A stretch of 64,000 nucleotides of DNA from NCBI GenBank assembly GCA_000091205.1, contig AP006499.2; one strand, 5' to 3'. This document shows, piece by piece, positions 920 through 64,000 of this stretch. This DNA comes from Cyanidioschyzon merolae. Lineage: Eukaryota. A model generated the notes under the pieces. It searched no databases, was not told the DNA's origin, and saw only the letters and a program-made list of their open reading frames with translations. Both the position numbers and the translations under genes were made by a program. Numbering within the stretch: the stretch's first letter is position 1; each line of letters opens with the position of its first letter.

Positions 920-1289
920 TTCCGGTGCAGGTTCCCAGACCTAACCGCCGACGCCCAGTGCTGCGTTTTCCCCCGCTAGTCAAAACCTAAGGTTTGCAGG
1001 CGTGTCTGCGAGTTTTTTGTCGAACTTCACCCCGCACCCGCGAGACTTGAACACAGAACAGGACGAGTGACTCTGGCGGTGGCGAGTAGTGCCTCGTGCT
1101 GCACTCGTGCTCACGCGCTCCGGGTTTCCAGGCAGGCGCGTATCCAGGCCCTACGGCGGTTAATGCTGGAAGCGCACGCTCCACGGGCGTTGTGCGCTCA
1201 CGCTTTGTCGGGTGAACGAGCAGCGCAGTACTCGTCCCTGGTTCGCAACGCTATGTGTCTACCGCTGTCACCTACACGGTTTTTAGTGA

Positions 1290-1740
1290 TGTAGAACTGA
1301 CAGGTAGAAACCGAGGCCCTTGGATACGCGATTGCTGTGTATCGGGAGAACAACAGCTCCACATTGATTGCGCTGCACACCGAACAGCGCCGCCGATTTT
1401 TTTCATTGACAAAACGTGTACTTGTGCCAGCGTTCTCCGATTATGCGGGTTCTCCTTTCTTTTTTGTGTGTTTTCTTTCAGTGCGCGGCGACGTATCCAC
1501 CAACCCCCTACCTCCAAGTTACATACCCTTTACTGATTCCAGGATATTCTGGTCGTTTCATACGTCCCATCGCGTGTGCCTCGTACCTGCCGTTCCGTAT
1601 TCGCCTTTGCGCTTGAACGCTGGAGCAGATAGTTCATGGAGCTGGAACAGCTTTTCTACACCACAGAGGGCGTCGGCTCGAGGCGTGCTTCACCCGACGT
1701 AGAATCGGATCTCGTCGTCAGTTTGTGCTCGGACAGTCTG
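1290..1740 (+). repeat. Dispersed ~450-bp repeat family X, copy 1 (second copy at 56270..56740, same orientation, ~75-80% identity)
   Basis: Direct comparison of the two stretches: ttcattgacaaaacg..cagcgttctcc....ccctacctccaagttacat..ggtcgtttcatacgtcc.atcg.gtgtgcctcgt/ggtgcctgcc..gagggcgtcggctcgag are shared. The spurious ORFs 1337..1702 and 56417..56890 translate the same conserved stretch (PLPPSY..SRIFRSFHTS.RVCLVPA). Confidence 0.6.
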
Positions 1741-1827
1741 CGGATGCAGGCTTGTCTTCGCTGCACGACACGCTGGAGAAACTTGGTTGTTAGGATATAT
1801 CGTGGAAGCCGCCTCTCTCCTTTGTGA

Positions 1828-4740
1828 TCATGCATGGAATGCGTTGTTGTCGGTTGGCAATGCGGGTTTGTGCTTGACACCCACCACAGTGGGTAGGCGC
1901 AAAGAGCGCACTGAGCCCATGTGCGCATCCGATTCGCTGGACCTTCCGCCTAGAAGGTAGCATGTGAGTTTGTTCGCCACTAATGAGCGCTGAGGCTCGG
2001 TTAGCGGACCATCAGTTGCCAGTGCTACACTCAGGGTGAGTGTCCGGCCTTTTGCTATCACGGTGATGTCCAGCTGCTGCTGTCCTTCAAGGAGCTCGCT
2101 GCGCTCCTGCTTCGAGCGCGGGCACTGTAAGCCCAAATATGTCAGCGTCTCGGGGGTCTGGTCTCCAGAGCAGGGACAGTGTGACTCCCAGTGCGACTCC
2201 AGTGTTCCTATACGGCTTAGAGCCGGTGCTGGTAGCCAGATGCCACCAACGCGGATTTTGGCGAGCCACTGGGTACCTCGAGCAAGTCCCGGGAATTCCA
2301 GCGCCTCCCACCAGTACTTGCACGTGTTTGCTAGGTTGTAGTTCCGGTATACAGTCAAGCCGGCGTTAAGGGCGCGATTTGTTCCGTGTCTACGTTCCCA
2401 TATTGTTTGGACCGTTCGCTTGAGGCGGCGGGAGCCTTGTACATTTCTGGGGAACGATTGGAGCGCATTTTCGCCTAAGAGGCGCTTCAGCCAAATCTGC
2501 GCTGATTTCATCCAAGTGTTCTAGCGGTGCGTTGGGGTCTGCATGAAAATCCGACTCAAAGAGGTGCGCATAGTGGGCCCTTTGGCCCGTATACATGCCC
2601 GGCAGCCTGCTGCTATCGCTTCTGTCGAGGCTATTTGGAGTTCAAGTCCGAGTGCCAGCGCGGTGGTTGCTCTGCTCTGCACTGAGCATCCAACAACAAC
2701 GAGTCGCATTGCCCTGTTGGCGGCTGTCTGCGGACGCGAGGCATTTGTGTGCTTCATGCCGCACCACCCAGCACCCCAGGTCGTAGGCTGGATGATACAC
2801 ATCCTTAGTGCCCTCGTACGGATTGCTAAGGGGATAGAGGGGTCGGATAGGACTGGGCGTGCGATCGCTGTACGTCTACGCATCTTGGCGATCATCTCGT
2901 TAACGTGTGCCTTTTCGTCGAGCGTCAGCATGCGACAGACCCTGCAGATAGCGATATTTTTCCCCGATCGGACTTTCCTGATTCTGCAACCGCCACGAGC
3001 GATTGCGAATGCTCTGCGAGTCTCCATGGATGACCATGACGCCGCACTTCGATGCTCCTACGTTCATCTTCCAGCGATCGACCCAGGCGCTGACTTGTTC
3101 CATGCTACCCGCAAGCGTTTCCGGGGCGGGTGCCAACAACACGACATCGTCCGCGAATAGAAGGCCTGCGAGGCGGTTCCTATGCGAGGGCTCTTTACCG
3201 GGCTCTCCGCAGTCTATCCACGGCACCTCAAGTCCGTATTGTCTGCAGTTGTTCAGCGGATCGTTGATGAAGATGTTGAAAAGGAGCGGGGATGCGGGGT
3301 CGCCCTTTTGTAGTCCACGGCGGATTCTTATACAAGGGGTTCTTGAGCTGTCGCCCAGTCGGATGCGCATCCATGAGTCTGCATAGAGCGCACGGAAGAA
3401 CGCTAAGCACTTTCCGGAGACTACGGCACGTTCCATCTTCAAAAATAGAACCTCGTGCGGGACCGTGTCAAAGACCTTTTGGAAGTCGGTGAAGCATACG
3501 TAAGTTGGTTGTCGGTCACGAATAAAGCGACGTTGCGCCACTTCAATGAGGGTCAGGGCATGGCTCATGTACTCCTCGCGGCTCCGGAATCCAGCCTGCC
3601 CTGGGGCGAAGAACTTGCGTTGCTCGAGGCCCCTCTGAGTCCGGTTCGTGGGAATGGCGCAAAGTAGCTTTATGATTGACGGGATGAGGCGCATAGTCCG
3701 GTAGTTGTTCATGTCTGTGTGGGAGTCTTTTTTGAGGATCGGTACGACTTCGGCAGTCCTCCATACATCCGGGATGTACGTTTCTTCGAACATGCCTTGG
3801 ATGAGCTCCACAAGGCGTTTGCCTAAGCTTGTGTCAGGTTCATCTGGTATCGATGGTGTCCCTGTTGTCCCGTCTTTTGGGGTCGTCAGTTTCATCCACT
3901 CCGCAGGGATACCGTCGATGCTAGGTGTTTTGCGGTTGCATGACCTTAAGAGGGTCCGAACAGATTCAGGCCAGAAGATTGGCTCGTTCCATTCCGGTAC
4001 CGGGTCGAGGCGCGGTAGTTCTGCGGCATACTGGTGCCAATAGATTCGGTTTTGGCAGTGCCCAGTTGCGTCTTCATGTAATTCTGTGCCGTGGTCCGTC
4101 CAGGCCTCATTCACTGAGGCACCCTCCGTCCTCAGCGCTTCCTTATAAACGATTGGTGTGAGCCCCAGACACTTTTTTGGTGGGTCAAGTCTCGATCGGA
4201 TATAGCGCTAGGTCTCATCTTCGTTGGTGCTCTCGAGCATAGATTTCGCCAGGGAGGCGATTTTGCGGTTTCGATCCTCCTGTTTGTCTTCTCTGGAAAG
4301 TTTCTTCTTTCTTTTGATAGCTTCCTCATGTTGCGCCTGTAGCGCCGGTAGCGCTGCCTTCGCTTCCTTGTCTCCGGCGTTGGCGCGTATGGCGGTGCGT
4401 TTGACGATCTTATAGAGTCGGTGGCATTCATCAATCCGAGTTTTGGTACATCGTTTCAGGTACTGCGGTTTGCAACTGTTGCGTTCTGGTGCAAGCCGTC
4501 CCGGTTGGTCTAATGATTTGCATGCACGGCTTTTCGGTTCTTCAGCGCTGTGGGTAGGTGACTGAGTTGGGTGACGGCTTTCTTGAGTTCCTGCAGGGGT
4601 GCCCTTTCGGGGGATGACTTGTGATGGGCTCGTTTCGGAGTTCTTCTTTCTAGTCTTCTGTTTTTTCTCGTTGGGCTTCTTCTTCTTCGGGCGCTTTCCT
4701 GAGCTGCTTTCTCTGGATATTTTGCATCTAGGTGGATCAT
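1828..4740 (-). mobile_element. Degenerate non-LTR (LINE-like) retrotransposon: basic ORF1-like peptides, RT ORF, and downstream Cys/His-containing segments split over three reading frames
   Basis: Minus strand, 5' to 3': arginine-rich peptides (ORFs 4510..4740, 4132..4434); the RT ORF 2900..4114; then ORF 2521..3027 (overlaps the RT ORF end in another frame, contains CRVCRML...H) and ORF 1828..2511 (HCPCSGD...C) in a third frame. No AP-endonuclease-sized ORF lies upstream of the RT. Confidence 0.7.
2900..4114 (-). pseudogene. Reverse transcriptase domain of the non-LTR retrotransposon; the frame is broken at both ends
   Basis: Canonical RT blocks in order: SIDGIPAEWMK, NYRTMRLIPSIIKLL, QAGFRSRE, VCFTDFQKVFDTVPHE, LQKGDPASPLLFNIFIND, LLFADDVVLLA (FADD box). 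The continuation requires frameshifts into ORFs 2521..3027 and 1828..2511. Confidence 0.8.
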
Positions 4741-5026
4741 GAGGTTTCTGTGCCTCCTTCTCCGTATCTGGTTGGGTCTCTTTCGCTATTGTAGAGTCCT
4801 CTATTGGTGTCTCTTCTTCGTTAATGTACTGATATTTCGTTAGCTTTTCTCGGAAGGCTGCAAGTGACCTGTTGGTTACTCTCCGGGCTTGGTGGTATGA
4901 AGCGATGCACTGCGTTGCACCGGCGCGCCGCTGCTACCCAGAGGCCGCGCCCTCGACCAGCGTCGCCGCCAAACCGTGCGCGCCCTATCTTGTACTTCGA
5001 GTCGGTTTCATCGTTCTTGTCGAAAA

Positions 5027-18103: not shown

Positions 18104-19310
18104 TCATATAGTTAACCTTTTGGGAGGTTGTCTCACAAAATTCTCTCTTGTCATCTCTGGAAGTCTTTTTTCCATCACCACACATTTCCTGATATTAATT
18201 GCGGCGTTAAAGTCTCGGTTCACAAACTCCATCCGTTTCTTGCCATCATTGATTGTACTTACTAATGCAAGTCGCCCATGAACGTTCGCCCTCCTTTCCA
18301 TTTGCTATCCCGTCAGCGGTCCGTATTTTTCATATCCTCAGGGCTCCGCTGGCACTTTTCCATCTCGAATCTCTGAAGTGTGCATCCCAGCTCATGGTGT
18401 ATATACAATGCTCGGAACTCATCGATCGGTAGCGGAACGAAACGCCTTGCGCACTCCTTGTACGTTCTCGCCGGTGGAGCTGGTGTAGTCCCTTTTTGGG
18501 TCTTCCAGCGTCCTGCTCCGTATGCCACTACGAGCCTCTGACGTTCATCCTCCTTCAAGCCACTCAACTGATTGAAAAAGTTGGCAAACGCCCGCTGCTT
18601 CCCACAATACAGATTCATTCGCAGACGAGCCCACCGAGGCTTTGTATACCCTTTCCACAGCGCATCCCAATGAGCAACGCGACCTTCCATGAATTTTCGA
18701 AAAGCTTCAAAGTCCGCTCCTCGACTCGTCACCTTGCTCAAAGCCTCCAGGTGCTCTTTCACTTATGCGTTCCACGTCTCGATTTTATTCCTTGCATTCA
18801 TGATTCTGGAGTCTCGATAGTATCTTGCTCTCGAGAACTTTAAAATACTCATGCCTTTCTGAAGTAAGTTGCCGTGGATACCATCTTCCGCACGCTTGGG
18901 TACTGCGATGGTTATGATACTTGTGCCCCAGGGTCCGCGCCAACGACAAAGTCGTTATCCTGCACTTTCTGCGTCGCAGAATCCGCCTCCTTCTCATCTT
19001 CATGCTTCGTTACGGGCGAGGCCGAGCATGGAACAAGACGATCCGCCTTCAAGCGCCGACGGTGTACACACATGGATACCCCATCGGTTTCGATCACCCC
19101 AGTGAATACCTTTTGTTCGCTGACTTTCAAACGTTTGATTTCGAAGATATTCTTCTGGTACTTCTCCCGGTTTACACCGGTGAACTCCTTCCTGCTAACC
19201 TTGAACTCCGGACAGATCTCCCTCATGATGCCATGAAGGACTGCGGAATCGATGGTCACGAAATGTGCCCTGATGTTGCACAACGGAACCACGTTGAAGC
19301 GCTTCTCCAT
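18104..19310 (-). pseudogene. Fanzor/TnpB-like nuclease ORF remnants (RuvC-I, RuvC-II region, Zn-ribbon/RuvC-III) split over three frames by stops and frameshifts
   Basis: ORF 18912..19310 ends ...[19 protein letters not shown] 18313..18762 ends ...PIDEFRALYIHHELGCTLQRFEMEKCQRSPEDMKNTDR*. ORF 18104..18301 contains FVNRDFNAAINI. The gaps between segments are under 20 nt and contain in-frame stops, so they are not introns. Confidence 0.65.
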
Positions 19311-22300
19311 TAGGAACGCTTCCGTCTCTCAGACGCTTCATTGTTCCCGCGATTCAGCTCCATCTCCGCCTTGGGTTCGAGCTCTCGGTCTAGGTGCACG
19401 AAATAGCGCATAATTAGGGGATATCATCATTTTTTCACCTTTTTTCATATCTGATACCTTTTCTGCTGGGTTGACCGGCCTCAAGGGTGCACGGTGCTCA
19501 TGAATAGTCGCACGGATTATAGAATCCTCATTCGTGCACCTGCGTGATGTCTTCTTGTCGACGAACTCGATCTCCTGTTCAAGCTGGCGATCGTCCGTCA
19601 TCCCATTGGTGATGGCCCATCTTTCCTTCGCGAGAGAGACCCGGTTGGAGTGCAAACACGGCGCATATCATGAAGCCCTGGAGGTTCATGGTTAAACGGT
19701 CTCCAAGTTCGTTAGGTACCGCATGGCCCCGTGGGTGTAAATATTCCAGTCCCTCTGCATCGAGTACCGTAGAAGCTGTAGAAGGGATGCTTTTCGTGGA
19801 GGGCATGCACCCGCTCATTTCCCCTCGAGGTTTCCCCTGTGGCGAGCACCAGGTGGCGGAGAAGGGTCCTGCTGAAAAATTCTTCCGGAACCTCGGCTGT
19901 TTCGATGTCGGCCACGTCTTCATTCATCTCCTTCACCAAATGCATTAGCCCTGACGAAGCCTTTATAACACTCATGGAGTAAGACGCAACACGGTTTCTG
20001 GGAGTCTCTTGCAACGCTTCCTTGGACGGATGCTTGATATGTATAAGATGGCAGGCTTTGACAACCATCACGTCGTTGTGCCGTCTTTCTTGCAGCCTTT
20101 GACGTCGGGCCTCCTTCATTCGCTTCTTTGTCTCGTCCTGTTCCTCTTCGCACTGGACTGTGTGTTCGTTTGTATCCGCCAGCTGGCGACACTGGGCCTC
20201 CAGGAGCCTCCACTTTCACTCGCATAACTTTCCTTTTTAGTTTTTTTTCTGAGAAAGAACGCACTTTGAATGCTTCAGGTATAAACAGCGAAAAATCACT
20301 TGAATACACTTACTTGAGGGTTGGAATACGATTGAACTGAAAAGCATACTTTGCTACGACTTCAATGCAAATACACCGCGTGCAGCAGAACAACACGCTC
20401 TTGATACCGATCGCGTTTCCGTTCAAGAGCAGCATGCGCGAAGTGTCTCGTGTAACTGGCTGATGTCTCTGGTGCACGTGTCCAGCCCCCTACAGAAAAA
20501 AAAACAGAGACTCACGACTAACTGGCAACGATATGACAATTTCTTTCCCCCCTCTAAGGTAAACGTTAAAAGGCGAAAAGGTTTCCATATTGTCGAAAGT
20601 TTATTTTATAGGCGAAACGTCCCGCGAGCCGGACGTGTCTGCCAGACCAGTGCTTCATGCGACCCCAGTGGAAGGTGCTTGCTGGAAACCCGAGCAACTC
20701 GTGCGAAATGCAGTTTATTATGGGACTAGGAGCGGGTATGCTGCGTCAGGGCGTCGGCCTGGTCGCAGTTATCTCCTTACATATCGCTTGGCGCTGCCGC
20801 AGGCACTAGGTCTGTCTGCAGAGCTTGCAGGCTCCCAGAAAGATTATGTACTCTGGCGCTGTATCGGGAAAAGCGCTCCTCGATTGGACGCCCTCTGTGG
20901 TACGGTAACGCGGTTTTGTCTCCGCGATCCATCTGTTCCAGCGGTTTAGGCGCCACTACGGGTGCTCATGGTAGGTACTCGCGCTCGCTAGAACGTAAAA
21001 ACCGACCAGTATGTCCGCGATGAAGCATAGGTAATGTAACTTGGGAGTAGGGAGTTTGATGGATACTTCAATGCGCACTGAAAAAAATAGGAAAAGAAAA
21101 AGCGCATAATCGGCGAACGCTGGCCAATGTCAACGTTTTGTCAATTAAAAAAATCTGCGAATACCTGACCACAACGAAATGGCACCGATGCGACGGGCGC
21201 GCTCAGTTTCCACCCCGAAAAGACGGGAATGACAAGCGCTGCACAAACCGCAACGACCGCTTGTGCGTGATACGTATGAGCAAGAGCCTGGAGCAGTGAG
21301 ATAGGGACCTGGACGCTGCCATCAACATTCTTCGACTGCTGCGAATGAAGCTGGAGTCAAAACGAGAGACCAACGAATTAAAAACCGGAGGTATGAGGGA
21401 GCGAAAGGAGGCTATTGCAGAAAAGGTCCACAAATCCAAAGTATCAATGACTACAGGAAGAGACCAAAACTCTAGCGTGCGCACCCGAGTGAGTAACGCG
21501 GAACCTTCCATGGTAGTCTGCCGTGGGTACCGGGGAGCCCCGTGTCCATCGCGAGACACTCTCGCAGAGCGTCCGCCTTGTTTTCGGAGGAAGCAGGCGG
21601 AAAAGCGGCAACGCCATGCAAGCCTCGTTATGGCGGTCACGTCGCGGGAACATACACACAGCAATGACCCAGCAGTCACGTGCCGTCCGCGGAACCTTCC
21701 GCCAAGGCAGCCACGTTCGAGTGTGGCCATCACGAACGAGCGCTGCAACTCGGGCACGATGACGGCATCCAGTGGGCACAACGGCCATTCACACCCAGTC
21801 TGCGTTTCGCGTTACTTCTGAGGCCTGGAATGGAGTCGAGCTCAGTTCCCCGGAGGCCAATGGAAATCGACTATTCGGCGGATTTCCGGTCCCGCGAGTA
21901 TTGGTCCTACACCACAAGAAAATCGCCATGAGCGCTCCGACGCTCAACCGTATCCCCCTCGTGGGCTCTGTCGGAGCCCTGAGGCACACAACCGGACACC
22001 CGAGTTCTGACCCAGCCACCGGGCAGCTTGGACGGCAAACGCTCAGCGAGCTTAACGCATCGCATCGCTCTGACGACCACATGCACATCAAGCTGGATGC
22101 AACCGAAAACGAAATGCGTGAAACGCCTACTCATGGCGTTCAGGGGATCCCAACGACCACGACGCGGAAGCGACGAAGCGCTCCGCAATCCGGTCGCGTT
22201 TCCGACACATCTGCAGTAAACTTAGGAATCATCGTCGTTTACGCGTATTGCGAACCCGATATGTCAGTATAATTCCGTCCTTCTGATGCCGCTGCGATCA

Positions 22301-22963: not shown

Positions 22964-24323
22964 TCTCGAGAAGTGAACTGTTTACCTCGACGCGTGCAGA
23001 GGCGCGTTCAGCGGCTCACGATTCAGAGCCTACACACAACGCAGAAGACCCGCGGAGGCGGACGACGAGGAGGAAGGGTTCCAGGTCGAGAATCCGCGCG
23101 CTCGGCGGATGCGACGCCTCTTTGCGAGCGCGCCTCGTCAGCCGTGCTCGAAGTGCTTTTGCCGATAACGAAGTGTTTACATTGACCACTGGATCCCAGA
23201 TTATGGGGTGTGTATTACGATTCATGTAGTCGTCCACCATGATGCATCATACCTCCCAGTTCCGTTTCCTGTTTTCGGATGTACCGGTCGTTTTGTACAG
23301 TCTATTGTGCGGCGAGTGCCAGCCGTGCGTTATCCGCCTTGGCGCCTGAACACTGCTGGCGCGGATCCGTCTCGGAGACAGAAGGGCCTAGCCATACCAC
23401 TGAGCGCGTCGGCTCGAAAGGTCGTTCACTAGTCACAGAATTAGGATTCTTTATCGTTCTGGGAGCCTGCAAGCTGCGCAGAGAGACGTACTGGCTGCGG
23501 CAGCGTGTAGCGATATACTGGGAGACCACTGCGACCAGGCCGACGCCCCGACGCTCCCTAACTGCCCTAGTCCCAGAATAAACTGCGCTGCGGACGAGTT
23601 GCTCAGTTGCCACTACAGCACGCGCCACTGCAGCGCCGCATGAAGCACGATCCGAGCAGACTCGTCCGGCTCCCGGGGCCTTCCGCCCATGAGGTAAATT
23701 GTCGACAATGCGGAAAACTTTTCCCCTATTTGGAGTTTACCGTAGAACAGGGAAAGAAATCGTAATCTCATTCCTAGCTACTGATTCGTTTCTCTTTTTT
23801 GTTTTCTATAGCGCGCGCTCGATACGCGCATTTACGTATCTGATAGACTTGAGATATGACGCCACAGAGTCTATGACGTTTCGATCTTGCACTGGGAAAA
23901 GCTTCGGTGCATTTCACACTGCAGGCGCACCCGCTCTCGGTGTCACGTTTCAGGGCAGGGTTGCGGTGCGGCTCACGTCGCCGCGTCTGTTTTCTGCAGG
24001 CGCAGCACGAGGTACCTGCGGAACCCCATAATGGATAATTCTGGACCGCTGGTGAGCCCGCATAACGCAATACCTCTACCAACTGGCACGGATCCGATGG
24101 GTATGCCTAGAACACTGCGAACAGTTGAACTCGTCGTTGCCATGTGCTCGAGCGATGCCCCCGGTATCAGCTTCTTTCCATGCCTGGAAACGTGATCGCA
24201 AGAGGCGGGCCATTGATGCCACGAAATCGGGGTCTCTGGTGGGACAGGCTGCTGTCGTATAGCGCATCGTACCCAGAAAACGCGTATGGGCATGGACATG
24301 CCTCTATGACTGCGTTCCTCATT

Positions 24324-26671: not shown

Positions 26672-28031
26672 CCATACCAGAAGTATACAGAATGGAGACT
26701 CTGACCGTACTCGGTCGCCAAAACGCTAGCATTCCGCTCTCCTTCTATCTATTTTCATCAACATCAGCCTGTGCGGGCTTTGAGTGCGACTGATTCCTGT
26801 CCCTCTCGCTGATCACTGGGCTTACAAATGCCGATGTCTGCATTCGCGTCAGCCGCGCTGCAGCAGTCGAGATACGGTGATGCCAGCGTTCGAGTCCGGC
26901 GTTCGCTGTTTCTGGTTCATCCGCAAGCACTGCATCCACAAGCGGTCGTTACGATCCGTGCGTTGCTGGCCATTTGGAGCCCACGTCTCTGGAGCTTCGG
27001 TGCGGCTGCCGCAGCGATGACGCCTGACTGCGTTCAGGTGCTTCCATGGGTCTGACGCCACACACGTGCTCCTTCGAGCACCGCCTCGTGGCACGTGAAC
27101 GCGCGCGTCATCGCTCCTTGCATGCCACTGACCGCTGCAAAAGGCTGCCTTGGATGCCGTACCCAAAGAGCACGGACTTGTTCTGGGCGATCGCCTTGGC
27201 GAGCACGCTATCGACTGCGTATGCAAGCGACCGCTGCCCCGTTCGACAGAGGATTTGCGGTAAGCGACGTCGTTCGGGATCAGGTATGTACCGGGGGCGG
27301 AATCCAGACTGGAGCGCACGCCCAGCAATGTCGATCGGTCTGCGCTCCCTTCTTCGTGCACAGCGGTGACACGCGCTCTGCTGGAAGCGATCGCTACGAT
27401 GCCTGACGTCCGACTCCAGGGCCCTTTGTAATGCAAACAAGGGAGACGAGCACTTGTGGGCGTATTTTCGCATGAGAGGTATGTTGCTGACGATGTTGCA
27501 TGGTGTGTTGTCGATGCCCACAGAGGGAGAGGGCAGGATTTGTCACTGGAGTGAAATCGATGATTTGACGGAACGCGTTCAGAGAGGGTTCGGTATGCGC
27601 TTGAGACGAAGCCTCACAGGCTCGCCGTCGACTTCTCCTTCACTCGCGGAGGCGGTGACCCGAATCGCCCCGCCCGCGAGTCGCCTCGCAACGGACGGAT
27701 CGGGAGCTTGGAGAACGCGGGATCGCAGGATGCTGTTCGTAAGGGAAGCGGAAGAGCAGAGGCTCGCACGCGTACAGCGGGTAACGAAAGCGGATACTGG
27801 ACAAACCATTCTGGATTGCGTCGCGAATGGTCTTGCTTCTAGTCACGTAACGAATTCCTGCTATGAAAGCGGTAGGAACTACTCCGAGGGTTATCACCGA
27901 AAATCCTAAAAGTGCATGCAAATCCCTGAGCCCCAATCGCTGCACGTGGAATGTCGATGCTATGCTTCTGAATAAAAAACTCGGTGAAAATCACGAGGCA
28001 GGAACAGAGCAAACAATTCAGTGTTCCATTT
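26672..28031 (+). repeat. 1.3-kb dispersed repeat family R, copy A (about 98-99% identical to copies at 40822..42194 and 49271..50658)
   Basis: The ORF-track peptides are identical or differ by 1-2 residues across the three copies (e.g. 26745..26939 = 40900..41094 = 50379..50573; the 195-aa ORF differs only at TYLIP/THLIP and LHTQS/LHSQS). Copy A diverges from B and C a few bases earlier at both ends. Confidence 0.85.
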
Positions 28032-28382
28032 TCACCTGGCGCAAAACTCGCGGTCGCTTTCAGACACTATCTCCGGCAAGCAACGAACAAGGCGAGTGTT
28101 TTCTATGGATCGTGCTGGCAAGTGACAGCGGTCTACACGATACCGTACGCTGAGGTATGCGTTCAGTCTCATTGAACACATCTCCTGGGACTCTCCGAAA
28201 GCATGTACAATGCCCAGGGCCAAGTCGACTTGTAAAAGATCTCTGCGGGCCAATATCCATCCCTAGAAACACGGCTCTCGTCGTGGTGCTTTTCCAGAGA
28301 GCCCCCCGCTTATCCCGAATGTCATTTCCCTCATCCCGAAAGCTGCGCGAACACATGGCGGAGCTTCCCAACGGGACCTTAT

Positions 28383-40821: not shown

Positions 40822-42194
40822 TACACCCATGCCAAAATAAAATGGAATGGGTCCAGTTAGCTAACTCGGTCACCAAAACGCTAGCATTCCGCTCTCCTTC
40901 TATCTATTTTCATCAACATCAGCCTGTGCGGGCTTTGAGTGCGACTGATTCCTGTCCCTCTCGCTGATCACTGGGCTTACAAATGCCGATGTCTGCATTC
41001 GCGTCAGCCGCGCTGCAGCAGTCGAGATACGGTGATGCCAGCGTTCGAGTCCGGCGTTCGCTGTTTCTGGTTCATCCGCAAGCACTGCATCCACAAGCGG
41101 TCGTTACGATCCGTGCGTTGCTGGCCATTTGGAGCCCACGTCTCTGGAGCTTCGGTGCGGCTGCCGCAGCGATGACGCCTGACTGCGTTCAGGTGCTTCC
41201 ATGGGTCTGACGCCACACACGTGCTTCTTCGAGCACCGCCTCGTGGCACGTGAACGCGCGCGTCATCGCTCCTTGCATGCCACTGACCGCTGCAAAAGGC
41301 TGCCTTGGATGCCGTACCCAAAGAGCACGGACTTGTTCTGGGCGATCGCCTTGGCGAGCACGCTATCGACTGCGAATGCAAGCGACCGCTGCCCCGTTCG
41401 ACAGAGGATTTGCGGTAAGCGACGTCGTTCGGGATCAGGTGTGTACCGGGGGCGGAATCCAGACTGGAGCGCACGCCCAGCAATGTCGATCGGTCTGCGC
41501 TCCCTTCTTCGTGCACAGCGGTGACACGCGCTCTGCTGGAAGCGATCGCTACGATGCCTGACGTCCGACTCCAGGGCCCTTTGTAATGCAAACAAGGGAG
41601 ACGAGCACTTGTGGGCGTATTTTCGCATGAGAGGTATGTTGCTGACGATGTTGCATGGTGTGTTGTCGATGCCCACAGAGGGAGAGGGCAGGATTTGTCT
41701 CTGGAGTGAAATCGATGATTTGACGTAACGCGTTCAGAGAGGGTTCGGTATGCGCTTGAGACGAAGCCTCACAGGCTCGCCGTCGACTTCTCCTTCACTC
41801 GCGGAGGCGGCGGCCCGAATCGCCCCGCCCGCGAGTCGCCTCGCAACGGACGGATCGGGAGCTTGGAGAACGCGCGATCGCAGGATGCTGTTCGTACGGG
41901 AAGCGGAAGAGCAGAGGCTCGCACGCGTACAGCGGGTAACGAAAGCGGATACTGGACAAACCATTCTGGATTGCGTCGCGAATGGTCTTGCTTCTAGTCA
42001 CGTAACGAATTCCTGCTATGAAAGTGGTAGGAACTACTCCGAGGGTTATCACCGAAAATCCTAAAAGTGCATGCAAATCCCTGAGCCCCAATCGCTGCAC
42101 GTGGAATGTCGATGCTATGCTTCTGAATAAAAAACTCGGTGAAAATCACGAGGCAGGAACAGAGCAAACAATTCAGTGTTCCATTTTATAATCT
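40822..42194 (+). repeat. 1.3-kb dispersed repeat family R, copy B
   Basis: Near-identical to 26672..28031 (same orientation) and to the reverse complement of 49271..50658. It shares extended ends with copy C (aata.aatggaatgggtccagttagctaac at the 5' end, ccattttataatctaa at the 3' end). Confidence 0.85.
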
Positions 42195-46978: not shown

Positions 46979-47059
46979 CGGGTGTTGCCAGTCCACGCTG
47001 AGCAGGTTCAGAGGCGTGGCGAAGGTTGCAGCGACCGGGCAAGAAACCCCTCGATGAGC

Positions 47060-47340
47060 CCAGCACACGCGTAGCGTTCGCAGCGGCTCACGCCTGAGCG
47101 GATGAGGTACGCATCTCCTTCGTCATTGGGAGTTTCGTTAGGTTTCTTGTTCGTTAAAAAATACTCACGACACGATTCATGTGCATGTATATACGTTTAT
47201 TCCTGATGCTTGTAATGCAACTTTATCGGACTATGGATGGTGAACTGTTTTGGATTGCACTGCTATCGGGCGTTATGGGCTGGCACTGATGACACTACAT
47301 GTTGTTGCCGTACTGTCGTCGTTGTCTAGGTCATGGTGCC
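47060..47340 (+). repeat. ~280-bp dispersed repeat family Y, copy 1 (second copy at 63040..63310)
   Basis: Shared aacgcgtagcgttc.cagcg.c.cacgc.tg.g.ggatgaggtacgcatc ... cgtttatt.cctatgcttgt.atgca ... catgggctgg.actg.tg.ca.t.ca.gt..ttgcc.t..tcgtcgt between the two loci. Confidence 0.6.
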
Positions 47341-47689
47341 TGCTACTTTCCCCGGATCCGGCGATCTTGGCAGAGATGCAGCGCGCTTTCAGCGTCGATA
47401 TGGACCACGACGTGCGAGCCTTGTACATCACATGGCAGGATCGAGGCACCCGACAAAAGCAGATACTGCATTTTGGTCTACGCTATTGGTGTACTGGCGA
47501 GAGCGTACCCGGAAGGTCGTGGCGCAATCGCCAAACCGTGAAGTGATTCTTACTCCCGCCAGTCATATGCGCCCGGATATTCGTTGGCTACCTGCTGATT
47601 TTTCACATCAAGTAGGAATACTTTGGAACGTACGGATTTTCTCTCTTTCCGTTTATACGTCCAGTGAGGCGGAACAGGTTCACAGCGAT

Positions 47690-48180: not shown

Positions 48181-48513
48181 TTCATGTCCTGAGGTGAAAC
48201 CCCTTCACGGAGGGAGAAGGACTTGCGGAAGACAGACGGAATGTGCCCCGGTGAGTCAAAGTTGTGAAAGCTTGATCAGTTCGCCCAGCGTAGCGTTCAT
48301 TACGTTTCACGGTACGACACATTCCTTCGATGTGTTGAATCACGTAGAGGAAGCATTAATGAAAAGCAGCTCTATCCGGATAGAATCCGCAAAAACTCGA
48401 ACCCAAAGGGCATCATGAAATACCAACTTGTATAGTTGAAGGACGTTACCAGATGTCAGGGAAAAGTCTTCAATGATTCGGCTAATTTGTACATGGTGTT
48501 GTATGAGACTTCT

Positions 48514-48951
48514 CTACGAGCGACGCTGAGGCCGCCATACGAATCCCTTGTAGCTAGACCAGATGATATCCTCGTTCTCTTCGAGTTCGGTCGTATATAA
48601 CATAATCCCTCCCCGCGAACACCCATATATGCGCCAACGGTATCGCCTGAAGGAACCATCATCAACTGAAAAAAGAAACCGACGTCCCTGTGCCTCATAC
48701 CGGTCGTGAGGTACCAGGAACACTTTCTTTGCGATTTCGTTGGAAGATGGACATGCTGTAACTAGTACCTTTTTGGGACTGTATCCCAGTGTTTTCAGGA
48801 CAGGATGAAAAAGCTGGTGAGGTGCAGAGACGCCCGTAGTGGCTACTGTTGTCGCTTCTACCTTCCGGAAGGTGAACGACGGTTCGCTGTCTGCCATTGA
48901 CCGCCAGCATTCTATAAAACTATCGGTTTCTGGCGTAAAGCGCACATACAT
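48514..48951 (-). CDS. Hypothetical protein in an AT-richer island between Fanzor copy 4 and repeat copy C (may be TE-associated or spurious)
   Basis: ORF only: ...KKVFLVPHDRYEAQGRRFLFSVDDGSFRRYRWRIYGCSRGGIMLYTTELEENEDIIW, with no motif I can assign. The ORF track start is GTG; the first ATG is at 48951. Confidence 0.25.
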   Translation of the reverse strand: MYVRFTPETDSFIECWRSMADSEPSFTFRKVEATTVATTGVSAPHQLFHPVLKTLGYSPKKVLVTACPSSNEIAKKVFLVPHDRYEAQGRRFLFSVDDGSFRRYRWRIYGCSRGGIMLYTTELEENEDIIWSSYKGFVWRPQRRS

Positions 48952-49270
48952 CTTTCTTTCCACGTTCCTCAACCATCTGAGTGTCACGGTGTGACTGATC
49001 TGAAGGAGAACTGCAGTCTTCCTTGCACTGTTCAGTACAAAGTATACCCTACAGACAATTCATCGACGATCTATAGAGCACACTGCAGAGTTATTTCGAT
49101 CTGCTGCTCTACACCGCATCCGCCGAGAAATAAAATTGAGTTGGAAGACTAATGTAGCCCTTGGGCCAGCGTCCGGCGGATACCGCTGCTTCTTGTACAC
49201 GCTCTTCGGGATGCATGCGGCAGGTACGCATCAACTCTGCATGACATGCATCCGCTTTGAGATCCAAAAC

Positions 49271-50658
49271 CCCCTATTAGATTATAAAGTGGAACACTGA
49301 ATTGTTTGCTCTGTTCCTGCCTCGTGATTTTCACCGAGTTTTTTATTCAGAAGCATAGCATCGACATTCCACGTGCAGCGATTGGGGCTCAGGGATTTGC
49401 ATGCACTTTTAGGATTTTCGGTGATAACCCTCGGAGTAGTTCCTACCGCTTTCATAGCAGGAATTCGTTACGTGACTAGAAGCAAGACCATTCGCGACGC
49501 AATCCAGAATGGTTTGTCCAGTATCCGCTTTCGTTACCCGCTGTACGCGTGCGAGCCTCTGCTCTTCTGCTTCCCTTACGAACAGCATCCTGCAATCGCG
49601 CGTTCTCCAAGCTCCCGATCCGTCCGTTGCGAGGCGACTCGCGGGCGGGGCGATTCGGGCCGCCGCCTCCGCGAGTGAAGGAGAAGTCGACGGCGAGCCT
49701 GTGAGGCTTCGTCTCAAGCGCATACCGAACCCTCTCTGAACGCGTTACGTCAAATCATCGATTTCACTCCAGAGACAAATCCTGCCCTCTCCCTCTGTGG
49801 GCATCGACAACACACCATGCAACATCGTCAGCAACATACCTCTCATGCGAAAATACGCCCACAAGTGCTCGTCTCCCTTGTTTGCATTACAAAGGGCCCT
49901 GGAGTCGGACGTCAGGCATCGTAGCGATCGCTTCCAGCAGAGCGCGTGTCACCGCTGTGCACGAAGAAGGGAGCGCAGACCGATCGACATTGCTGGGCGT
50001 GCGCTCCAGTCTGGATTCCGCCCCCGGTACATACCTGATCCCGAACGACGTCGCTTACCGCAAATCCTCTGTCGAACGGGGCAGCGGTCGCTTGCATTCG
50101 CAGTCGATAGCGTGCTCGCCAAGGCGATCGCCCAGAACAAGTCCGTGCTCTTTGGGTACGGCATCCAAGGCAGCCTTTTGCAGCGGTCAGTGGCATGCAA
50201 GGAGCGATGACGCGCGCGTTCACGTGCCACGAGGCGGTGCTCGAAGGAGCACGTGTGTGGCGTCAGACCCATGGAAGCACCTGAACGCAGTCAGGCGTCA
50301 TCGCTGCGGCAGCCGCACCGAAGCTCCAGAGACGTGGGCTCCAAATGGCCAGCAACGCACGGATCGTAACGACCGCTTGTGGATGCAGTGCTTGCGGATG
50401 AACCAGAAACAGCGAACGCCGGACTCGAACGCTGGCATCACCGTATCTCGACTGCTGCAGCGCGGCTGACGCGAATGCAGACATCGGCATTTGTAAGCCC
50501 AGTGATCAGCGAGAGGGACAGGAATCAGTCGCACTCAAAGCCCGCACAGGCTGATGTTGATGAAAATAGATAGAAGGAGAGCGGAATGCTAGCGTTTTTG
50601 CGACCGAGTTAGCTAACTGGACCCATTCCATTCTATTCTGGAATGAATATAAGACGCG
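49271..50658 (-). repeat. 1.3-kb dispersed repeat family R, copy C (inverted relative to A and B)
   Basis: The ORF-track peptides are the same as in A and B but on opposite strands (e.g. 49882..50469 + matches 41004..41591 -; 50379..50573 + matches 40900..41094 -). Confidence 0.85.
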
Positions 50659-56269: not shown

Positions 56270-56740
56270 ACAGCATCGAGTATCGAACTGCAGCAATATG
56301 GGCGTACGAATTCATACGTGGTTTAAGATTCGTGGTTGTCTTTATCGGAATGGCTTTTACGAATCTATGCTGCGGAAATTTGTTTTGTTTATTTGTTTCA
56401 TTGACAAAACGTTTACATGGGCCAGCGTTCTCCAATTGTGCGCTCTTTCTGCTCCCACATTTTTTTGTGTTTTTTCCAGTACACGGTGAAGTATCCATCA
56501 AACGCCCTACCTCCAAGTTACATGTCCCATACTTCTTCTCGGATATTCAGGTCGTTTCATACGTCCTATCGTGTGTGCCTGGTGCCTGCCGAAAGCGACC
56601 GCAATGGAGTCTTTAGCGCCGATGCGTTCGCTGCACGGAGACAGAATGGCGTTGCCGTACCACACAGAGGGCATCGGCTCGAGATTCGTTCTGGTAAGGG
56701 AATCGGGAAGATTCGCGACGCACTCGAAAAAGCGTTTGAA
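56270..56740 (+). repeat. Dispersed repeat family X, copy 2
   Basis: See the feature at 1290..1740. Confidence 0.6.
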
Positions 56741-57799: not shown

Positions 57800-58570
57800 G
57801 GCACTGCGGTCGTGACGGCATATCTCGGACCACACTAGCTTATGCCGTGACATCGAGCCCGAAGAGAAGAGCGGGAACTCCATCGCCGCATTCTGAAGCA
57901 ACGCGATTGCCTCAAGCTCAAGCGCATGCACAGCTTGTGCGGCGTAGACCTTGGAGTCCTTCACCGCAATTGTGTTCCACCTCCGGGTACGTGTCATCAA
58001 GCGCTCTTTAGCGGTCTATATCAGACTTGCTCAGAGTGCGTTCATTTGAAGAAATAAAAAATCTAGGGGACAGGTATCGACATGAAAGTTGGAGATATTG
58101 CAGGGGATGTCGTCGCCGGCTGCCTGTAGAAAACGAAAAAAAAAATCCGCTTCTCGTCAGCTATCTAGCGAAGAAGGGCATATGCTGAAAAAGAAGAAAA
58201 AGAAACAAAGAGAACGACGAGTCAAGGGGCTTGCCCAACCGAACGACAACGAGACTGTGGTGGCATAGAGGGCACGAGTTCGGGGACTCCTTCCAATAGT
58301 GAGTTCACCCGGAGGCCCTGCACGCAGGGAGTTCGCGAAACGAGACTTCAACGCCATCATCAATGTCAAGAGATATGCGGCGCTGAGGACGACACCCGCA
58401 TAGCTGACGCGATCTGTCGTCGTGGGGCAGCTCCTCAGGCTCAAGATCTACAGGGAGATGCTGAAATCGATAGCATACGGCCGGTCGGAAAAAACTGGGA
58501 GGCGCCTGTGACTGGGTGTAAACATATACAATCTACGGTAGAAAAAGGTTTTTTCGCTCCATGGACTGTA
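57800..58570 (+). mobile_element. Internally deleted Fanzor-family derivative, copy 2
   Basis: The plus strand reads *RARVRGLLPIVSSPGGPARREFAKRDFNAIINVKRYAALRTTPA* (58260..58402). The 3' motif acgGCCGGTCGGAAAAAACTGGGAGGCGCCTGTGACTGGG is at 58478..58516. The 5'-end homology (57900..58075, ..caagcgctctttagcggtctatatcagacttgctcagagtgcgttcatttgaagaaataaaaaatctagg) aligns with the reverse complement of 20225..20340. Confidence 0.55.
58478..58516 (+). other. Conserved 3'-terminal non-coding motif, Fanzor family copy 2
   Basis: See the alignment in the findings. Confidence 0.4.
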
Positions 58571-62054: not shown

Positions 62055-62765
62055 ACATGCATCCCCAGGGCGAAGAACAACTTTTTACATCTATGGAGCG
62101 TATGGAAACCCATACGCAGACGCCGCGCAGCATTTTTGACCGGCCTCCTGCCACCGATATCAGTTTTTACCCCAGCACACTTTGAGCTTGAGAGTCTGGG
62201 CCACGAAGTTGAATCGCGTCGGATCCTTGGGTCTCGTCTTCTGCACCGCACACTGTCTGATATTAACAGCGACTTTAAGTCTCAGTTCATAAACTTAATG
62301 CGCGTATTGCCCCTGGCTGAACTCACCAGTGGACGGACTGCTAGAACTCGCGCCTTCTGTGCCACTACGGTCTCTTCAGTGTTCCGTCGGGCACACACTT
62401 TTTCCCGCCTATTTCCACTCTTCCTCTACGTCACATGCTCGGCTTCGCTCGATGCTAGGTGACAAGACAATTTTGTCTGTTTTTTCTTGAACCCGGCGAC
62501 ATCGGTACTCCAGGATCGTCGACTTGCTTTTCCATAACTTTCCTTTTCTAATTTTTGTCTGAAAAAGAACGCTTTTTGAACGCTTCTTTTATAGACTGCA
62601 AAAAACCAATCGAATACACTTGTTTGAGGTTTGGAACTCAAATGAATTGAAAGACTGTACTTTGCTTCGACCCCAACGCAAATACAACTTTTTCCGGTAG
62701 AACAACACGCTAATTGATCGGGATCATGTTTCCCTCCAACGGCGACATGCGCGTCGTGTCTCATG
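62055..62765 (-). mobile_element. Internally deleted Fanzor-family derivative, copy 3 (both ends retained, ~0.7 kb)
   Basis: The minus strand reads ...EETVVAQKARVLAVRPLVSSARGNTRIKFMN*DLK(frameshift)VAVNIRQCAVQK, collinear with copy 1's RLALVSTINDGKKRMEFVNRDFNAAINIRKCVV. The 3' motif aggagGCCGGTCAAAAATGCTGCGCGGCGTCTGCGTATGGG is at 62110..62148. The 5' end 62465..62765 aligns with 20150..20465 (cataactttcctttt...tctgaaaaagaacgc...atacactt..ttgagg.ttggaa...actttgct.cgac...gcaaataca...agaacaacacgct). Confidence 0.6.
62110..62148 (-). other. Conserved 3'-terminal non-coding motif, Fanzor family copy 3
   Basis: See the alignment in the findings. Confidence 0.4.
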
Positions 62766-63039
62766 TCTGCCCGATCTCCCAGGTGCGCTCACCGCCGCGA
62801 CGCATGCACCGCGCGAGACGGTACTCCGATCGATGAAGGACACGTGTCCGATGCCGCACTGGCACATGCGTGTTCTCACCAGCGCACTGCAGCTGCAATC
62901 CAGTGTCCTAAATCGGAAACTCACGTAGAATTATCTCCTGCTATAGGCCATGTCGCTGGTGCCCATCGCAGTACCGACCTGACATACAAGGAGATGTTGG
63001 GGCCTCCCACAAAAGCCCTGCAACGATTCCAGCAAACGC

Positions 63040-63310
63040 GTAGCGTTCTCAGCGACACACGCTTGTGTGGATGAGGTACGCATCACTCTACTCAATAGGA
63101 ATTTCATCAGTTTTATTGATCGTAATCAAACAATGTACGGCAGGGTTCCCGAACACGGATATGCGTTTATTGCCTATGCTTGTTATGCATGCTGCACGGA
63201 CGCTGGAGTATGGAACTGATTCGAATTCTGCTGGTATCCTGCGTCATGGGCTGGAACTGGTGGCAGTTCAAGTCATTGCCATGTCGTCGTCGTGCGTCGG
63301 ATTGTATTCG
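63040..63310 (+). repeat. ~280-bp dispersed repeat family Y, copy 2
   Basis: See the feature at 47060..47340. Confidence 0.6.
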
Positions 63311-64000
63311 CTGAAAGGAAGCCGCAGGACTTGTGTAACGTATTCAAGAAGAAACTCACGATGCTTTTATTCGATCTATTTCCAGACACTACCGCTCCCG
63401 AGCCTAAATTTCTGGACAAGCGTCAATATACTGTCCTTCAATCCCCAAACTGCCTATTATCAAAGCCAGCGGGGCGACGAGGGGCTAAACGAGCCCAAGA
63501 GCCACCGACACCAGTTTTACGGCTGGGCACCTTGCTGAGCACATCTTCCAGCGTTGCCGTTGTGCCGAAAGGGTTTGACTTCGGGCCCGCACCGCTCAGC
63601 TTATCTTTCCACTGCCCCTGCAGGTCCCAAGGCTTTCTTTGCTTGGGCACACGATCAAGATAAGACTCAGAGCCGTCCCGAGGGGTCGCGCGGCCTCCGA
63701 TGCCGCCAGCCCGAGCTCTGGCAATTGTGCGCTCCGCAGAAGGCGAACGGGGCTTCGAGTTGCCCTGTCGCGCTAGAACGTCGCTCCATGCAAGCGGTTC
63801 ATTGTTCAAGAGATCTTGCAGATCTGCCGCACCTCTCACGAATACCTGGACAGCTATCTGCGAACAAGACACCAAACCGAGCGCTCCGAAACTCAAGGAA
63901 GCCATGTCACCACAGTCGAGTCCGAACAAGGGTAAGCGAACGGCGCCTCGCGAAGCGTGACCTGGGAGGTGCACTGCGAGATCTCGAACGAATGTTGACA

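Follow-up and report, generated by a model that had tools for sequence, protein, structure and literature searches.

Short non-coding copies of the CMe-1 Fanzor1-carrying repeat in Cyanidioschyzon merolae and their probable origin in one internal deletion

The short copies and their parent family

The window analyzed here is a 64,000-nucleotide (nt) stretch of contig AP006499.2 from Cyanidioschyzon merolae 10D, a gene-dense region with long intron-less open reading frames (ORFs) in which self-BLAST detected several repeat families. Six of its ORFs are identical to annotated 10D proteins. One of these families carries a Fanzor1 gene and is represented by a decayed full-length copy (copy 1), three short copies (copies 2, 3, and 4), and the 3' tail of a fifth member (c5). 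Our study focused on the three short copies, which belong to an ORF-less subfamily, here called S, that also occurs at other loci. Counts of additional copies were based on one metagenome scan that yielded 80 loci (L-numbers) on ca. 1 Mb of C. merolae-like contigs, many of them from the same sample as a contig 99.6% identical to the window. Codon and identity figures for S were obtained from 12 copies, while termini and 20-nt flanks were analyzed in 10.

An earlier note on the window had reported three short copies, and these proved to be real, collinear, and close to where it had placed them, while their sizes and boundaries needed revision (Table 1). Copy 2 has different limits, and copy 4, described as 0.5 kb, shared homology with five other copies that extended ca. 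950 nt further 5'. The locus of copy 3 was correct, but its homology with full-length copies reached 62786 and, by way of a segment called module X, 63293. In pairwise BLAST comparisons, copies 3 and 4 aligned over 316 nt at 68.7% (E=5e-29), copies 2 and 3 over 289 nt at 67.5% (E=1e-18), and copies 2 and 4 over 299 nt at 66.9% (E=2e-16); alignment with MAFFT gave a collinear stretch of ca. 550 nt. A profile of the three copies matched copy 1 in two separate blocks, with profile positions 8-300 corresponding to 20343-20061 (E=3e-33) and positions 278-547 to 18323-18049 (E=3e-26), and the same two-block pattern was seen in other full-length copies. The 5' region of copy 3 matched copy 1 at 20475-20185 directly by blastn (73.8%, E=2e-42), and relics of the copy 1 C-terminus were recovered by tblastn in copy 4 (E=9e-8), copy 2 (E=2e-5), and copy 3 (E=3e-3). 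These matches bore out the proposal that a 5' portion of the element is joined to its C-terminal codons and 3' region. The peptides quoted in support of that proposal for copies 1, 2, and 4 were found exactly, and the (E/T)VVA.(R/K)ARV block was present in all three short copies. The copy 3 peptide, given as FMN, a stop, and DLKVAVNIRQCAV, crosses a 1-nt deletion and thus does not belong to a single frame.

Table 1. Family members in the window and their landmarks, in positions of the whole stretch (UTR, untranslated region; S, the ORF-less subfamily; A and B, its two main types)
Feature	Position	Strand	Details
Copy 3, S-family unit	62065..62654	-	5' UTR-like segment, ATG 62535-62533, N-terminal relic, C-terminal relic
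Copy 3, junction	between 62385 and 62384	-	GCCCGACG followed directly by GAAC
Copy 3, C-terminal side	~62296-62244; ~62143-62110	-	RuvC-III relic; motif CCGGTC...GGCGTCTGCG
Copy 3, S-type 3' terminus	62065	-	...TTCGCCCTGG
Copy 3, first ~130 nt of full-length 5' UTR	62655..62786	-	GCACCTGGGAGATC...; other S copies are without it
Module X, 5' extension of copy 3	62787..63293	-	also in full-length copies L023 and L027
Copy 2, S type B, 609 bp	57957..58565	+	5' terminus TCCTTCACCGCAATTG; degenerate start ATC, 58076
Copy 2, landmarks	junction between ~58240 and 58241; RuvC-III relic 58332-58373	+	3' terminus ...CGCTCCATGGA
Copy 4, S type A, ~1.49 kb	49148 to 47661	-	5' terminus TCTTCCAACTCAATTT (49148), then segment Y
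Copy 4, segment Y	most of ~48200-49070	-	~870 bp; specific to type A
Copy 4, landmarks	ATG 48137; junction between ~47986 and 47985; RuvC-III relic 47893-47843	-	3' terminus ...CGCCTCACTGG (47661)
Module X fragment	47027..47486	-	~175 nt downstream of copy 4, head-to-tail
Copy c5, fifth family member, 3' tail	63905..64000	-	runs off the window; remainder in the 99.6%-identical contig L014, 13494-13840
Copy 1, decayed full-length CMe-1A-type Fanzor1 element	20475 to 17958	-	ATG 20225; frameshifts and stop codons
Copy 1, landmarks	20102 to 18322; ~17999		segment missing from S; equivalent of S 3' terminus; terminal 45-nt hairpin-bearing tail
TE-N2_CMe-like 5' module of copy 1	20490..21160	-	matches the published 5' 635 bp of CMe-1A

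The parent family has been known since 2013, when Bao and Jurka (PMC3627910) described CMe-1A as ca. 150 copies with ca. 80% identity to a 3,169-bp consensus. They found no terminal inverted repeats (TIRs), left its target-site duplication (TSD) undetermined and the element unclassified, and noted that its 5' 635 bp correspond to TE-N2_CMe. Direct reading of the printed consensus and the CMe-1 protein matched them to the 5' module, start, and 3' region of copy 1. Copy 1 and CMe-1A share the same TE-N2_CMe module, start (MEKEVEDPGGPVSPA...), ORF, and 3' region, and on these sequence matches copy 1 is a member of CMe-1A. Although broken, its ORF retains GADPG, IDEFR, and NRDFNAAIN.

The Fanzor-family label given by the earlier note was sound, as the structure model of an intact relative matched solved Fanzor1 structures first and the RuvC residues were conserved. 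Intact relatives 60-78% identical to copy 1 were abundant in hot-spring metagenomes, and a profile search recovered ca. 1,500 relatives of the Fanzor protein. In an alignment of 85 sequences, the catalytic RuvC residue D318 was invariant, and E490, R558, and D559 were nearly so. The AlphaFold2 model of the intact relative P0005 (predicted local distance difference test score 84.2, predicted template modeling (TM) score 0.79) returned as its top seven Foldseek matches the Fanzor1 structures SpuFz, PpFz, and GtFz (E 6e-13 to 1e-9, TM-score at most 0.62), with Cas12, Fanzor2, and TnpB ranked below them. By sequence, neither the Fanzor ORF nor its profile matched TnpB in Pfam, NCBIfam, or PDB sequences, and a distant relative gave a single sub-threshold match to Cas12f1-like_TNB. 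The copy 1 ORF also contains, at 18935-19014 and just upstream of the RuvC-I aspartate, a tandem unit of ca. 78 bp that encodes an acidic stretch of 26 residues (KHEDEKEA...QKVQDN). The unit varied from one to about five copies between family members (including P0001 and P0002), and AlphaFold confidence there was below 50 (residues 260-302).

A shared junction and its spread

In copies 2-4, the 5' part ended in the same sequence as the copy 3 junction in Table 1 and the 3' part began with GAAC/GGAC..TGA.GAGAC. A 23-nt pattern just 3' of this point occurred in the window only at the three copies, with 0 expected by chance. The breakpoints fall at 20103 and 18321 of copy 1 and, counted by hand, at ca. 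1027 and 2812 of the published consensus. The segment lost is ca. 1.78 kb of the Fanzor ORF (hand-counted as ca. 1028-2811 of the 3,169-bp consensus). What S kept is the 5' UTR, the start codon, ca. 41-47 codons, the last ca. 65-100 codons, and the 3' region. The two parental breakpoints share a terminal ACG, a 3-nt microhomology, with no longer repeat seen. An origin of the junction from spliced messenger RNA (a retrocopy) was ruled out, as no GT-AG was present at the breakpoints, indicating a genomic deletion.

The same junction was found among the 80 loci in at least 10 more non-redundant copies and at least 5 further type-A copies (including L052, L062, L059, L081, L102, L097, L111, L094, and L078), giving at least 18 S copies in total. 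The 5' and 3' parts are thus contiguous pieces of one element rather than neighbors by coincidence, since the junction recurred in 15 or more additional copies at unrelated loci. No synteny was found between the flanks in the window and the loci of the other S copies, which indicated that the latter were not orthologues. A search for the junction pattern in viral contigs found nothing. All 12 S copies analyzed carried a 3-nt (one-codon) deletion and the sequence VAQRARV where full-length copies have MERRAKV, and copies 2-4 had in common one junction, the one-codon deletion, and an S-specific 3' tail. The shared junction, codon deletion, and S-specific changes argue for one amplified ORF-less subfamily, as opposed to independent deletions. 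The remains of Fanzor codons to either side of the junction show that S arose by deletion from an element that had the ORF, and not by capture of a gene.

Copy 1 itself was probably not the direct parent type. The S-type 3' region of ca. 250 nt, which differs from that of CMe-1A, also occurred in one decayed full-length copy (L041, ca. 1059-4100), and on this basis the parent of S was probably a sister lineage of copy 1. S is otherwise built only from the 5' UTR/N-terminal and C-terminal/3' segments of CMe-1A. It starts ca. 130 nt inside the 5' UTR (except in copy 3) and stops ca. 36-45 nt before the full-length 3' end.

The age of the subfamily was apparent from its decay. At the three codon positions, full-length copies differed pairwise by 0.15/0.14/0.31, a pattern indicating purifying selection on Fanzor, and S copies by 0.33/0.33/0.35. 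Stop codons interrupted 8 of the 12 S relics, and median identity was 0.61 between S copies and 0.79 between full-length copies. Judged from these sequence comparisons, S has decayed without coding constraint after spreading, and the copies in the window themselves look dead.

The earlier note had further suggested local amplification. However, copies 2-4 were not more similar to one another than to copies at other loci (copy 4 and L102a, 70% over 1470 nt; copies 4 and 3, 68.7%; copy 2 and L062, 67%), leaving that suggestion unsupported. The presence of five family members in 64 kb, as against ca. 150 in 16.5 Mb, points to accumulation within a repeat-rich stretch. The AT-richer islands in which the copies had been said to lie were largely the repeats themselves.

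Our findings suggest, with a probability of about 0.8, that copies 2-4 are dead members of an ancient ORF-less subfamily of the CMe-1 Fanzor1-carrying repeat, produced by one deletion and then amplified. The description of the three copies as non-autonomous, internally deleted derivatives of a Fanzor-family element was thereby supported. In the searchable literature, with Repbase outside that scope, we found no description of the S subfamily, and the CMe-1A paper gives no such ORF-less derivatives (PMC3627910). Within a family known since 2013, S is a case of ordinary transposon decay.

Termini, movement, and the retained 3' region

The S 5' terminus, (G)TCTTTCA.CTCAATTG, is an internal site of the full-length 5' UTR (ca. 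20345 in copy 1). The S 3' terminus, ...TTCG.TTCACTGA/CTGG (that is, ...CACTGA/CTGG), corresponds to CGCCACTACTGT of full-length copies, 36-45 nt before their end at ...GGCGTTGGTGGTG. The statement that the short copies retain both ends of the element did not hold. Relative to copy 1, S begins and ends at internal positions; copies 2 and 4 lack the first ca. 130 nt, and in copies 2-4 nothing matching the final 92 nt of the copy-1 type was detected (nhmmer --max, within the window). Two main forms were distinguished. Type B (copy 2 and four others) measures ca. 600 bp, and type A (copy 4 and at least 10 others) has the S 5' terminus followed by segment Y, of ca. 870 bp, which had no similarity to the Fanzor protein or to full-length DNA. 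Copy 3 has the S junction and S tail, yet keeps a full 5' UTR and module X, which together matched L023 and L027 at 78% over 830 nt. It looks like the least-truncated S form, and module X out to 63293 probably belongs to it.

No inverted repeat involving both termini was found in copies 2, 3, or 4, nor in the 12-copy alignment. A search for TSDs gave only shared k-mers of 3-5 nt in the flanks, which is the chance level, and no flanking direct repeats; no conserved motif resembling a target-adjacent motif (TAM) was obvious at the 5' flank of the 10 copies. The 5' end was TC in 8 of 10 copies and the 3' end CTGA or CTGG (CTRR-like) in most, with a 5' flank that was mostly G and a variable 3' flank. 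The description as miniature inverted-repeat transposable element (MITE)-like, classical DNA-transposon derivatives therefore fits only loosely. Like MITEs, S copies are short, non-coding, multi-copy, internal-deletion products of a longer element; unlike MITEs, they lack the defining TIRs and TSDs, their type A measures 1.5 kb, and their parent encodes no transposase.

Several arrangements of modules and tails were noted among the loci. A solo 80-nt tail directly preceded module X and a full-length copy in L084 (4373-4453). Module X repeatedly lay just downstream of another member's 3' end, ca. 175 nt after copy 4 and ca. 600 nt after c5 (followed by copy 3), a pattern suggestive of insertion in tandem or next to an existing end. 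In more than 10 samples, the contigs all broke at c5, as expected for a high-copy repeat. An identical 449-amino-acid Fanzor fragment (P0013) adjoined an initiation factor 2 (IF-2) gene in some contigs (L024-L029) and a DAO-domain flavin adenine dinucleotide (FAD) oxidoreductase gene in another (L030), reflecting either very recent mobility of a full-length copy or an assembly chimera. The possibility that a repeated "host" element contains the full-length units was rejected, as the loci contained no vacant sites (5' UTR start directly with the 45-nt tail).

In the account that we propose, one ancestral internal deletion generated an ORF-less product that was then copied to many loci, three of them in the window and at least 15 elsewhere. 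As S encodes nothing, its amplification would have needed factors supplied in trans, presumably by whatever machinery moves CMe-1 elements. That machinery would not be of the cut-and-paste DDE/MITE type, because S units have defined termini yet neither TIRs nor TSDs. The constant 3' end, the variable 5' regions (types A and B and copy 3), the 5' TC with a CTRR-like 3' end, and the head-to-tail pairs would fit a strand-specific, one-ended or HUH-like (rolling-circle-like) process, or yet another, as for CMe-1A. S copies may at one time have been a source of guide RNA for Fanzor protein produced elsewhere, because the retained 3' part of ca. 320 nt is the Fanzor guide-RNA region and the closing stem predicted there has its 3' strand at the S terminus.

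Characterized Fanzors encode their guide RNA in the 3' region next to the right end, with conservation that extends into the ORF, and C. reinhardtii has 20 extra copies of the Fanzor guide RNA (PMC10530073). RNAalifold with RIBOSUM scoring predicted for the full-length 3' region a multibranch structure closed by AGUAGU.GGUGG/CGCCACUACU, and the 3' strand of the closing stem ends where S elements end. Relative to shuffled sequences, the fold z-score was -3.7 for L078, an S copy whose tail is of the full-length type, and -1.85 for copy 1. When S copies were added to a model-fitted alignment, 17 pairs had double-sided changes, compared with 6.9 in shuffles (0/500). The covariance model matched copies 2, 3, and 4 weakly and with inconsistent alignment (18.8, 15.2, and 14.7 bits; E 0.004-0.05), and no Rfam match was found in the whole window. 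The evidence for a guide-RNA scaffold in the retained 3' part is suggestive only, although such a scaffold is plausible. If it were one, the RNA would extend past CACTACTGT in full-length copies or past CACTGA in S. A 15-nt match (GTACACCGTCGGCG) at 19054-19068 (-) in the copy 1 ORF to the constant segment after the predicted scaffold in full-length tails (covariance model E=0.64) is probably due to chance.

A number of observations weigh against the account outlined above. No empty sites or presence-absence polymorphisms were found, and all orthologous contigs were ca. 99.5% identical and already contained copies 2 and 3, so that mobility is deduced from copy distribution only. The S termini differ from those of the copy-1 type, making the use of the same machinery as CMe-1A an assumption, and no transposase partner was identified. 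With respect to the RNA, the S copies of the window folded no better than shuffles (z=+0.12 for copy 2, -0.12 for copy 4, and -1.61 for copy 3), and a separate RNAalifold run predicted no structure. Covariation among 52 full-length copies did not reach significance (8 cells with double changes, 4.2 expected; 26/500 shuffles), the covariation gained by adding S came from a model-fitted alignment in which the model aligns copies 2, 3, and 4 inconsistently, and no block of S was more conserved than expected from column shuffling (359/2000).

A stronger role for guide RNA is the alternative that fares best. S copies could be, or once have been, functional guide-only hitchhikers that relied on the Fanzor of full-length copies for homing or retention, a eukaryotic counterpart of the palindrome-associated transposable elements (PATEs) of bacteria, which derive from IS200/IS605, encode no protein, and often still specify an omega RNA (Meers et al. 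2023, 10.1101/2023.03.14.532601). Both are ORF-less TnpB-family derivatives that keep the guide-RNA end region and would receive nuclease and transposase in trans, and precedents have been reported (PMC10530073; 10.1101/2023.03.14.532601). The retention of the 3' part to which Fanzor guide RNAs map, the coincidence of the S terminus with the predicted end of the closing stem, the different flanks of each copy, the preservation of the 5' promoter/UTR region, the fold of the intermediate copy L078, and the covariation with S copies added are consistent with such hitchhikers. Against this, the copies are decayed (61% median identity) with no region-specific conservation, those in the window lack folding energy beyond that of shuffles, the covariation is biased by model fitting, and no TAM was obvious in 10 copies. 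PATEs also keep both parental palindromic ends, which are recognized by a known TnpA, whereas S, relative to the copy-1 type, is without ca. 130 nt at its 5' end and ca. 45 nt at its 3' end, including the terminal hairpin. We regard guide-only hitchhiking as a minority possibility, and it is to a like degree doubtful that the right end of S is the exact scaffold end, with each insertion carrying its own guide in the 3' flank and borrowing the Fanzor nuclease for retention or copying.

The full-length and S copies together could instead be a non-autonomous Helitron-like or other rolling-circle HUH element, comparable to Chlamydomonas CRe-1/2/3. These are likewise algal, transposase-less Fanzor1 elements with ORF-less or internally deleted copies that keep the 3' guide-RNA region (PMC10530073; PMC3627910). 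The lack of TIRs and TSDs, the TC and CTRR-like ends, the 5' regions that vary while the 3' end stays constant, the head-to-tail adjacency, a subterminal hairpin read from the alignment of full-length tails, and the Chlamydomonas Fanzor1 precedent (PMC3627910) would all agree with a Helitron-like element. However, insertion was neither between A and T nor after TTTT, given a 5' flank mostly of G and a variable 3' flank; the S terminus had no clear GC-rich hairpin before it; and full-length copies do not end in CTRR. No Rep/helicase partner was seen, though no search aimed at one was made, and Bao and Jurka left CMe-1A unclassified. The Chlamydomonas elements further differ from S in being non-autonomous members of Helitron2 with asymmetric TIRs, sometimes TSDs, and a young age, while S is old (ca. 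61% pairwise identity) and unclassified. A Helitron-like identity is, on balance, unlikely.

Independent deletion in place of three full-length copies, with no amplified short family, is very improbable: deletions are common in old transposon copies and copy 3 keeps a complete full-length 5' region including module X, but the junction is identical, the 3-nt deletion, substitutions, and tail are shared, at least 15 further copies at unrelated loci have the same junction, and a recurrent hotspot would have had just the ACG microhomology to act on. Equally little likelihood attaches to an ancestral short element in which the full-length form arose by capture of a Fanzor gene; Fanzor1 genes are often captured by diverse transposons (Bao and Jurka, PMC3627910) and S has defined termini of its own, but decayed Fanzor codons flank the junction (ca. 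41-47 N-terminal codons and a C-terminal block with the RuvC-III motif FVNRDFNAAIN), and capture would not leave relics broken by stops and frameshifts.

The interest of a deletion-derived, amplified S lies mainly in the part that was kept, as Fanzors normally encode their guide RNAs there. Fanzor1 elements like CMe-1A encode an RNA-guided nuclease and no transposase, and what the nuclease does for the element in eukaryotes is a question on which S bears. Having spread after loss of the nuclease gene while keeping the promoter-proximal region and the guide-RNA segment, S shows which sequences were enough in cis for its propagation; it confines the functional ends to ca. 600 bp and rules out TIR/TSD cut-and-paste. 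C. merolae is a small, transformable model genome in which small RNAs could be mapped and excision or homing assayed. If the guide-only alternative were true, S would provide a natural system for studying the role that Fanzor plays for its transposon in a eukaryote.

Other repeats in the window

Solo TE-N2_CMe-like copies were located at 1391-1697 (+), 23276 to ca. 23900 (+), and 56391-56683 (+). The copy at 23276 continues, by eye, into the first ca. 90 nt of the Fanzor 5' UTR, and the boundary between TE-N2 and Fanzor is not clean. The fragment at 1391-1697 abuts a retroelement at ca. 2261-4845 (minus-strand ORFs 2900-4114 and 1828-2511) that was 90% identical to L002 1-2637, which has a PF00078 reverse-transcriptase domain. 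Upstream of the TE-N2 module of copy 1, a RuvC-III-like peptide (DRDLDAAINILR) at 21282-21350 (+) gave a tblastn E of 0.44 and may be a chance match or the remnant of a further TnpB-like gene.

A 1.3-kb repeat, in which no ORF was obvious, was present in three copies of 99% identity, at 26709-28032 (+), 40864-42187 (+), and 49286-50609 (-). The segment between the outer, inverted copies (28033-49285) was flipped relative to 10D in several metagenome strains (L009-L013), which is an inversion polymorphism by recombination between the 1.3-kb repeats. Copy 4 lies inside this invertible segment.

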